The position numbers were made by a program, and so were the translations under genes. The notes below the pieces were generated by a model, which had not been told where the DNA came from, searched no databases, and saw nothing but the letters and a program-made list of their open reading frames with translations. From Octopus vulgaris (Eukaryota), in contig CATOCA020000001.1 of NCBI GenBank assembly GCA_951406725.2, forward strand, positions 3,782,001 through 3,846,000: DNA of 64,000 nt, read 5' to 3'. Within the stretch, counting starts at the first letter, position 1; each line of letters starts with the position of its first letter. Shown in pieces: positions 22,908-23,957 of this stretch.

Positions 22908-23006
22908 AAAATTATGCCGTCTTCGAAACATGTGTCGAGAGTAAAAACCTCGTTCGACTCCATTCTTTCATTTATTCATATAAATAACACAAATTTGCAG
23001 ACAAGA
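22908..23006 (+). repeat. 99-bp inverted copy of 23810-23908 containing the hammerhead 3' half
   Basis: aaaattatgccgtcttcgaaacatgtgtcgagag...acaaga is the reverse complement of 23810-23908 with one mismatch. Absent from paralogous sites near 5660, 13290 and 62670. Confidence 0.95.
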
Positions 23007-23175
23007 CTTAACTGGGTTAAGTAAAAATAAAAGCATAATAAAACATTTTAGGTAATTTGGGGACACAAATTTATGAGTTCTTAAGGGTGGAGAACCTTTT
23101 TATCCCATCCTTAATGCCGTTGAGGAGACTGGACAATGGCCAATAGAAGGCCGATATAATATAATGAAAATCGTA

Positions 23176-23292
23176 ACTTACCAATAAAGTGCTGTTAGTC
23201 TCTGTTCGTAAGAGGTAGTGAATGTTTATATATATCTATATATATATATATGTGCGCATATATATATATTGCGTCATTTGTTTATTTACCAT
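23176..23292 (-). promoter_or_regulatory. Candidate promoter/exon-1 cassette, copy 3 (exon ~23182-23224)
   Basis: Exon and donor identical to copy 1. Confidence 0.45.
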
Positions 23293-23324
23293 AATTTTTT
23301 CATTGAAGTAGCACACAATTATGC

Positions 23325-23372
<48 letters not shown>

Positions 23373-23533
23373 ATAGATTGGCGTCTTTATTTCTCATTAT
23401 ATGAATCCGATATTAAAAGTTTGCGTCAGCAGACAAAGTCGGGCGTTGATAGTGGAAGAGTGTAGATGAGAGAGGGGAAAGAAAGTGAGAGAAAGAGAGA
23501 GAGAGGGAGGGAGAAAGAAGAAGAAGAGGGTTT

Positions 23534-23564
<31 letters not shown>

Positions 23565-23632
23565 ATATATATATATATATAAACACGCACACGCAGTTAT
23601 CAGAATTATATAAACGTATATATTCATGTATT

Positions 23633-23698
<66 letters not shown>

Positions 23699-23874
23699 TA
23701 GGTGAATGAATTATCCTAGCATGGAAAATTCGTTTAACCGATACCTGGGTAGCAAATTCACGTCGGAAATCACAGTTGAAGTGACCTGTCAAGGGTAGAA
23801 ACTCCGGGTTCTTGTGTGCAAATTTGTGTTATTTATATGAATAAATGAAAGAATGGAGTCGAACGAGGTTTTTA

Positions 23875-23957
23875 CTCTCGACACATGTTTCGAAGACGGC
23901 ATAATTTTAATTCCGAAGGAATAAATGGTGCATTATGTCATCTTCTCATCAGGAAAG
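23875..23957 (-). ncRNA. Type I minimal hammerhead ribozyme (Penelope pLTR type)
   Basis: Minus strand: ctttc-CUGAUGA-gaagatgacataat[26 nt]attatgccgtcttc-GAAA-C-atgt-GUC-gagag. Stem I 5 bp, stem II 13/14 bp, minimal stem III with palindromic ACATGT, GUC cleavage triplet (cut between 23880 and 23879). Confidence 0.85.

Follow-up and report, generated by a model that had tools for sequence, protein, structure and literature searches.

A 99-bp inverted copy of part of a hammerhead-bearing repeat in an Octopus vulgaris repeat array, probably a scar of local break repair

The repeat array and its inverted copy

The window analyzed here, 64,000 nt of Octopus vulgaris contig CATOCA020000001.1, is a mosaic of 18–21 kb units made of retroelement fragments and microsatellites, in which paralogous segments are 84–98% alike. 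Pfam was run on 103 stop-to-stop open reading frames, namely 101 of the 152 that pass a length and complexity filter and a further two beside the insert described below (the 51 omitted are mostly duplicates from later units), and its only matches were to RVT_1, zf-RVT and, in a single weak case, GIY-YIG. ARAGORN found no genes in the window. A tRNA-like SINE, which we take to be an octopus OK-type SINE, lies at 25133–25480. The array also holds a second, larger inverted duplication: a near-palindrome of 2.4 kb with 95% complementarity occurs twice, at 33374–35746 and 51885–54253. In it, the 3' portion of a LINE, with RVT_1 and zf-RVT matches, faces an inverted copy of itself, tail to tail, across (AAT)n/(ATT)n tracts.

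In one unit, the plus strand at 22908–23006 is an inverted copy of the minus-strand arm 23810–23908, with 98 of 99 bases identical (E 1e-43) and 803 bp between the two. The arms share 92 bp of perfect inverted identity, and their single difference is a C-to-G mismatch at 23000. The copied tract comprises the 3' strand of stem II, the GAAA, stem III, the GUC and the 3' strand of stem I of a predicted hammerhead ribozyme, together with 65 nt of downstream DNA. Its first seven bases (22908–22914) are also microhomology with the target, and it is followed by a 12-nt filler at 23007–23018 (CTTAACTGGGTT) that takes the place of three bases, CTG. Between the arms lies unit DNA (23019–23695) that is also found in units lacking the insert and was therefore already there; it contains the motif GTAAGT (minus strand, 23181) that a preliminary description had read as an exon-1 donor. 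An equally inverted match pairs 44236–44334 with 45133–45231. Here the insert with its filler spans 44236–44346 (plus), its right junction having one A fewer, and the source arm with its hammerhead spans 45133–45280 (minus). These two pairs are half of the only four inverted matches less than 5 kb apart in the window, where 15 inverted matches occur overall. The almost perfect inverted copy of the ribozyme's 3' half some 800 bp away, its recurrence at 44236/45231 and the filler at the right junction are thus all as the preliminary description had reported them.

The source repeat and its predicted hammerhead

The source arm lies within a repeat copy at 23696–24326 (minus) that sits between two (TA)n tracts and has no ORF, and of which 23696–23958 belongs to a very abundant family. 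Depth of this family in public contigs, a rough guide that gives no copy number, is near 100,000 over 22954–22985. By analogy with described elements (PMC4209133, PMC8557442), we infer that 23696–24326 is likely a solo Penelope-like pLTR or a retrozyme monomer; no ORF could be linked to the repeat, and Pfam on the 103 ORFs found no linked RT and GIY-YIG frame within it. The (TA)n on both sides, and the loose ends of the dispersed family that likewise fall in (TA)n, fit the insertion of Penelope-like elements (PLEs) into (TA)n described in PMC8557442. When metagenome and viral contigs were scanned for exact patterns of the family, neither set yielded a locus. Many contigs of the dispersed family pass into (TA)n at 23830 (position 22986 of the insert), 134 nt before the end of this copy, and the family seems to have two 3' ends, spaced more widely than the 30–40 bp PLE tail. 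Units that carry the hammerhead repeat (23696–24400) lack about 500 bp found at the corresponding place in other units (6378–7053, about 29850–30380 and about 48300–48840; no Pfam match), and the arrival of the repeat appears to have coincided with this deletion and with a short unmatched stretch at 24369–24401.

The predicted type I hammerhead occupies 23875–23957 (minus), with CUGAUGA at 23952, a 5-bp stem I, a stem II of 7 + 6 bp interrupted by an A-C mismatch (23938), a 2-bp stem III closed on the palindrome ACAUGU, and a predicted cut after 23880. A motif scan of the window for type I cores (CUGANGA, GAAA, UH, stems I–III) found three, all on the minus strand: 23952–23880, 45275–45203 and 63906–63835. 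The third (feature 63835–63906) has an ACAUA loop and an intact 14-bp stem II, and the insertion site of its own unit is empty (62672). No Rfam match at the gathering score was obtained in the 64 kb. When constrained to the ribozyme fold, the sequence lies 2 kcal/mol above its minimum, and the ribozyme region alone folds no better than shuffled sequence (z -1.16). The palindromic loop would form a duplex worth -6.0 kcal/mol with ACAUGU as against +0.9 kcal/mol with ACAUA, and we accordingly predict from the energy model that the ACAUGU hammerhead would depend on dimers. At the position of the stem II mismatch, the 63k copy has a G-C pair instead, and the pairing letter accounts for 81,372 of 81,505 depth units in run X1.

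The hammerhead resembles those of Penelope-like pLTRs and non-LTR retrozymes (Cervera and De la Pena 2014, PMC4209133; bioRxiv 10.64898/2026.07.22.740005) in its type I topology, its short palindromic helix III and its residence in a high-copy animal repeat. Unlike them, it is solitary, has no linked ORF or tandem partner in view, and has a long, extended stem II; with one hammerhead per 18–21 kb unit, the tandem hammerhead-bearing monomers that would mark a non-LTR retrozyme were not encountered. Hammerheads with a palindromic helix III of 1–2 bp are described as cleaving poorly as monomers and acting as dimers, a single minimal motif staying uncleaved (PMC4209133), and a lizard PLE hammerhead is reported not to cleave without protein (PMC11167929). 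Elsewhere in the window, 27032–28475 (minus) encodes a broken RT C-terminus and a GIY-YIG fragment of a Penelope-like element (weak Pfam match, E 0.008). Some 200 nt past this ORF, at about 27107–27062, lies a hammerhead-like core with CCGAAGA for CUGANGA, followed by GAAA and a stem II of 4 bp; its sequence bears no relation to that of the hammerhead at 23875–23957.

Empty sites, junctions and the origin of the insert

Five paralogous target sites are present in the window, two filled and three empty (about 5665, 13294 within 13288–13303 of the plus strand, and 62672). The insert had been described as absent from the unit with the variant loop; it is in fact missing from the 5k and 13k units as well as from the 63k unit. 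Against the closest empty alleles (1.8–2.2% divergent), the filled site retains AAAATTA on the left, has lost CTG, and has gained 92 copied and 12 filler bases. In an alignment of 882 columns about the insert, the two filled copies differ at one, and both have the C-to-G mismatch to the template. Over 22000–23999, the 23k and 44k filled units differ at 4 of 1584 non-microsatellite columns, as against 90 of 1826 (4.9%) over 18600–20499, where the same two units are far less alike. Judged from this sequence pattern, the two filled copies represent one event, and we infer that the insert lies on a tract recently shared, by duplication or gene conversion, between older units. Recurrence gives no evidence of selection: the occurrence in two units is real, and it is not an independent repetition. 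The near-identity of 22000–24000 and 43330–45350 beside left parts that differ by 4.9% also marks the array as a mosaic with recent exchange.

Public contigs speak to the reality and frequency of the two forms. The empty-site joint with CTG occurs in three of four runs (X3, X4 and X7, at depths of 4112, 4780 + 82 and 1629), ends loosely in X1, and occurs also in X8. The filled arm/filler junction occurs in X4 alone of the four runs, at a depth of 223.5, where a contig of 76 letters covers 22971–23046 with no gap, 36 letters on one side of the junction and 40 on the other (28 of them beyond the filler), and with 2 letters that differ. Positions 23010–23017 have no cover in X1, X3 or X7, in contigs that show presence, not absence, and that represent 76% of run X3 and 80% of run X4. 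X4 may be the sample from which the assembly itself was made. An assembly artefact would be a natural worry in so repeat-rich an array, and the left junction is not among the best 32 of 550 contig pieces; the gapless contig across the arm/filler junction and the differences between the window copies (one base at the junction, 4.9% further left) make it highly improbable. We conclude that the filled form exists and that it is apparently a minor variant.

What was copied appears to have been a unit-borne copy of the repeat, not a dispersed family member. Following the 3' strand of stem I, contigs of the family have about 16 bases (loose ends at 22945 and 22950) that are missing from both the local source and the insert, and at all seven arm positions where most of the family depth differs (among the top 40 of 99 rows), source and insert both have the local letter, two of the seven falling inside the microhomology. 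It is this shared deletion of about 16 nt and these seven letters that point to a unit-borne template; since the unit is multi-copy, the template may have been a paralogous unit. Less can be made of the earlier argument from ACATGT, although the conclusion drawn from it is correct. Insert and source do share it, and the 63k unit, with ACATA, has no insert; the match nonetheless says little because ACATGT is the common form of the unit in public contigs, with zero-difference pieces at depths of 731–1700 in X1, X3 and X7.

The same markers bear on whether the insert is an independent fragment of the dispersed pLTR family, or the inverted 5'-truncated copy that a Penelope-like element usually brings along. 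The depth of the source family and the frequent presence of an inverted truncated copy at PLE insertions (Craig et al. 2021, PMC8557442) give this idea its appeal, and the insert is indeed an inverted partial copy of a hammerhead-bearing repeat. In the arrangement described there, however, the inverted copy adjoins the 5' end and brackets the element, whereas here the arms stand tail to tail around older DNA: the insert lies 3' of the element, beyond 677 bp of unit DNA that it brackets, and it runs 20 nt beyond the alternative end at 23830, ending 114 nt before 23696. The 63k sister unit carries the repeat without the insert. The deletion of about 16 nt, common to insert and local source and absent from dispersed copies, argues directly against an independent pLTR insertion, and together with the local letters it contradicts the closer match to distant copies that the preliminary description had named as the outcome that would count against it. 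We regard an origin of this kind as scarcely credible.

The junctions resemble those of repair. On the left, comparison with the common empty allele (13k, 62k and public-contig joints) gives a microhomology of 7 nt (AAAATTA), and an eighth nucleotide is shared only with the 5k copy, which is more distant; the aaaattat of the preliminary description is thus real, and one base shorter in the relevant comparison. Random template starts within 1.9 kb attained 7 nt in 5 of 7586 cases. At the right end of the arm, homology amounts to 1 nt only. The filler can be covered at 11 of its 12 bases by two patches of left flank, a cover that 4.3% of 20,000 random 12-mers equal; its single 7-nt flank match is expected by chance in 6.5%; and with its neighbors it forms a 7-bp hairpin (z -2.84) matched by 4 of 200 shuffles. 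These statistics are modest, and the parse of the filler was made after the fact. A hairpin in the template as the cause of the arm's end found no support (z 0.87 and 0.23). Eleven base pairs to the left of the break ends an abundant short repeat with TTAA at its terminus (22692–22903), marked by a depth peak and loose ends at 22739–22801. This repeat is presumably a piggyBac-like MITE, and one may speculate that a transposase nick near its end caused the break.

Based on the empty sites, the 7-nt microhomology, the 3-bp deletion, the flank-like filler and the local-source markers, which together support the local template-switch insertion first suggested for this locus, we propose with good confidence that the 99-bp piece is an inverted copy, taken from 803 bp away, that replaced 3 bp, was made once by microhomology-driven break repair, was then likely copied between units, and is probably a functionless, neutral scar. 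In the order of events that we envisage, the right broken end would have been resected past 23908; it would likely have gained short patches copied from the left end and from a snap-back hairpin, which became the filler; it would then have folded back onto its own strand, copying 23810–23908; and the newly copied AAAATTA would have annealed to the left end. The polymerase could have been that of theta-type end joining or of an MMBIR-type template switch. Since much of the non-microsatellite DNA nearby consists of the repeat, the presence of a hammerhead in the template is likely due to chance.

It is also conceivable that the template was RNA, a Penelope-like or LINE reverse transcriptase having copied a nascent minus-strand transcript in cis into a nearby break, starting at 23810 and ending in 5' microhomology. 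Microhomology at the 5' end is seen in 5'-truncated retro-insertions, as it is here, and RT and GIY-YIG remnants are present in the window. A Penelope-like RT is moreover reported to be able to begin at an internal position of its RNA that has no homology with the cut DNA (PMC11167929). The 3' end of the insert, however, fits neither end of the family, whether 23696 or the (TA)n end at 23830 with its loose ends at 22986: among the best 24 of 41 loose ends, those of family copies fall in (TA)n at 23830, and only the source continues at the insert's end (23810). The insert has neither a target duplication nor a tail, and its landing less than 1 kb away demands a cis mechanism, which comes at no extra cost if the template is DNA. 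In humans, inverted duplications with this shape are, as described in PMC4617611, not typically linked to retrotransposition. We therefore think RNA templating unlikely.

Repair from a DNA template also has well-described counterparts. Among sequenced human inversions, 54% are reported to be inverted duplications, nearly all below 1 kb and inserted within 5 kb, making them the commonest inversion-type variant (PMC4617611). Like that 'Inverted Dup' class of 1000 Genomes phase 3 (Sudmant et al. 2015, PMC4617611), the octopus insert is under 1 kb, reversed, within 5 kb of its source and joined by microhomology, and it is free of the marks of retrotransposition; its size and distance, its empty site with a small loss, its junction microhomology and its local template are those of an inverted duplication. 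The differences are that it lies in a mollusc-like repeat array and that its template happens to hold half a hammerhead. The likeness to TINS (Carvajal-Garcia et al. 2020, PMC7165422) and MMB-TI (PMC8421209) is found in the several rounds of synthesis, the direct patches, the fold-back inverted copy, the longer final microhomology and the small deletion. TINS are described as falling into two classes, direct-repeat patches from the other end and inverted patches from a hairpin; the first tracts of polymerase-theta insertions are said there to be rarely longer than 10 nt, with a template typically within 30 bp (PMC7165422), and the search radius given for MMB-TI is 100 bp (PMC8421209). Here, by contrast, the main tract is 99 nt and its template 803 bp away; the filler fits a strict TINS pattern (P 0.04–0.07), the 99-nt arm does not.

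Possible consequences of the paired arms

The preliminary description had gone further and proposed that the insert, in read-through RNA of the minus strand, would block the hammerhead by pairing with it and would loop out the donor; on a functional view, the insert would have been kept for this effect. Folding does predict that a transcript from 24000 to 22880 would pair its arms fully and lose the ribozyme fold, with a calculated -162 kcal/mol for the arm duplex as compared with -14.6 kcal/mol for the constrained ribozyme, and antisense blocking of ribozymes in cis is known from HDV and from engineered constructs, where a stretch in the same RNA can sequester a ribozyme strand (Kennedy et al. 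2013, PMC3553993). Pairing at equilibrium would nonetheless be true of any 99-bp inverted repeat. The hammerhead at 23875–23957 has a helix III of the 1–2 bp palindromic type that needs a second copy (PMC4209133), yet its unit contains no other hammerhead. An A-C mismatch also interrupts its stem II, at a position that is G-C paired in the 63k copy and in nearly all of the family depth. The blocker arm begins 874 nt after the cut site, whereas the working cis-blockers described in PMC3553993 are short and lie 5' of or beside the ribozyme. A thin search of the literature brought up no natural case in which a PLE hammerhead is blocked by an antisense stretch at long range.

The remaining elements of this proposal fare similarly. 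A promoter within the loop would yield RNAs without the ribozyme, and the donor motif GTAAGT, with one site against 0.11 expected from composition in 803 nt, is near chance. Pfam on the 103 ORFs gave no host gene to which the 'exon' could belong, and a sigma-70 promoter scan, a model not apt for an animal, returned hits at chance level. The empty allele prevails in public contigs (4780 + 82 as against 223.5 filled in X4, depth being a rough measure). No run recorded as RNA contains this stretch. The depth pattern of X8, a run only guessed to be RNA, is the same as that of the DNA runs and gives no evidence on expression either way. Beyond base-pairing, then, the anti-ribozyme block and the donor loop-out find no support, given a dimer-type hammerhead, a broken stem II pair and a blocker that arrives 874 nt late, and we judge them very unlikely. 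Comparison of the arm between the 23k and 63k units revealed no excess conservation (1 substitution and 1 indel in its 98 columns; 4 in 114 and 2 in 138 columns of adjoining sequence). Traces of A-to-I editing fixed in DNA were considered and set aside: the arm mismatch is C-to-G, and the 16 listed differences between window and family (23765–23993) include no A-to-G on the minus strand and two on the plus strand.

The arms had also been taken to make the DNA between them potentially invertible. Perfect inverted identity over 92 bp could allow recombination at a low rate. All five unit interiors in the window, however, have one orientation; the 103 ORFs include no recombinase, their Pfam matches being limited to RVT_1, zf-RVT and the weak GIY-YIG; and the junctions resemble repair, not recombinase sites. 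A programmed invertible cassette is, in our estimation, extremely improbable.

One observation that sits less comfortably with a neutral repair scar is that the insert has spread to two or more units on a tract that they have shared recently, an outcome that is compatible with neutrality and not predicted by it. If the array were transcribed across both arms, the 99-bp hairpin would offer double-stranded RNA to ADAR, Dicer or the piRNA machinery, would block cleavage by trans-dimers, and could furnish small RNAs against the abundant Penelope-like family; the insert might then have spread between units on the recently homogenized 2-kb tract for that reason. We hold this to be very unlikely. The scar is probably without function, a point that we argue here.

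As it stands, the insert matters little in itself. It offers a clean case, from an invertebrate germline, of a repair scar of a common kind whose empty and filled alleles occur together, and it counsels caution, as an inverted copy of half a ribozyme need not be a regulator. Were a transcript across both arms to be shown, the same insert would mark the datable birth of an antisense hairpin directed against a ribozyme-bearing retroelement family.
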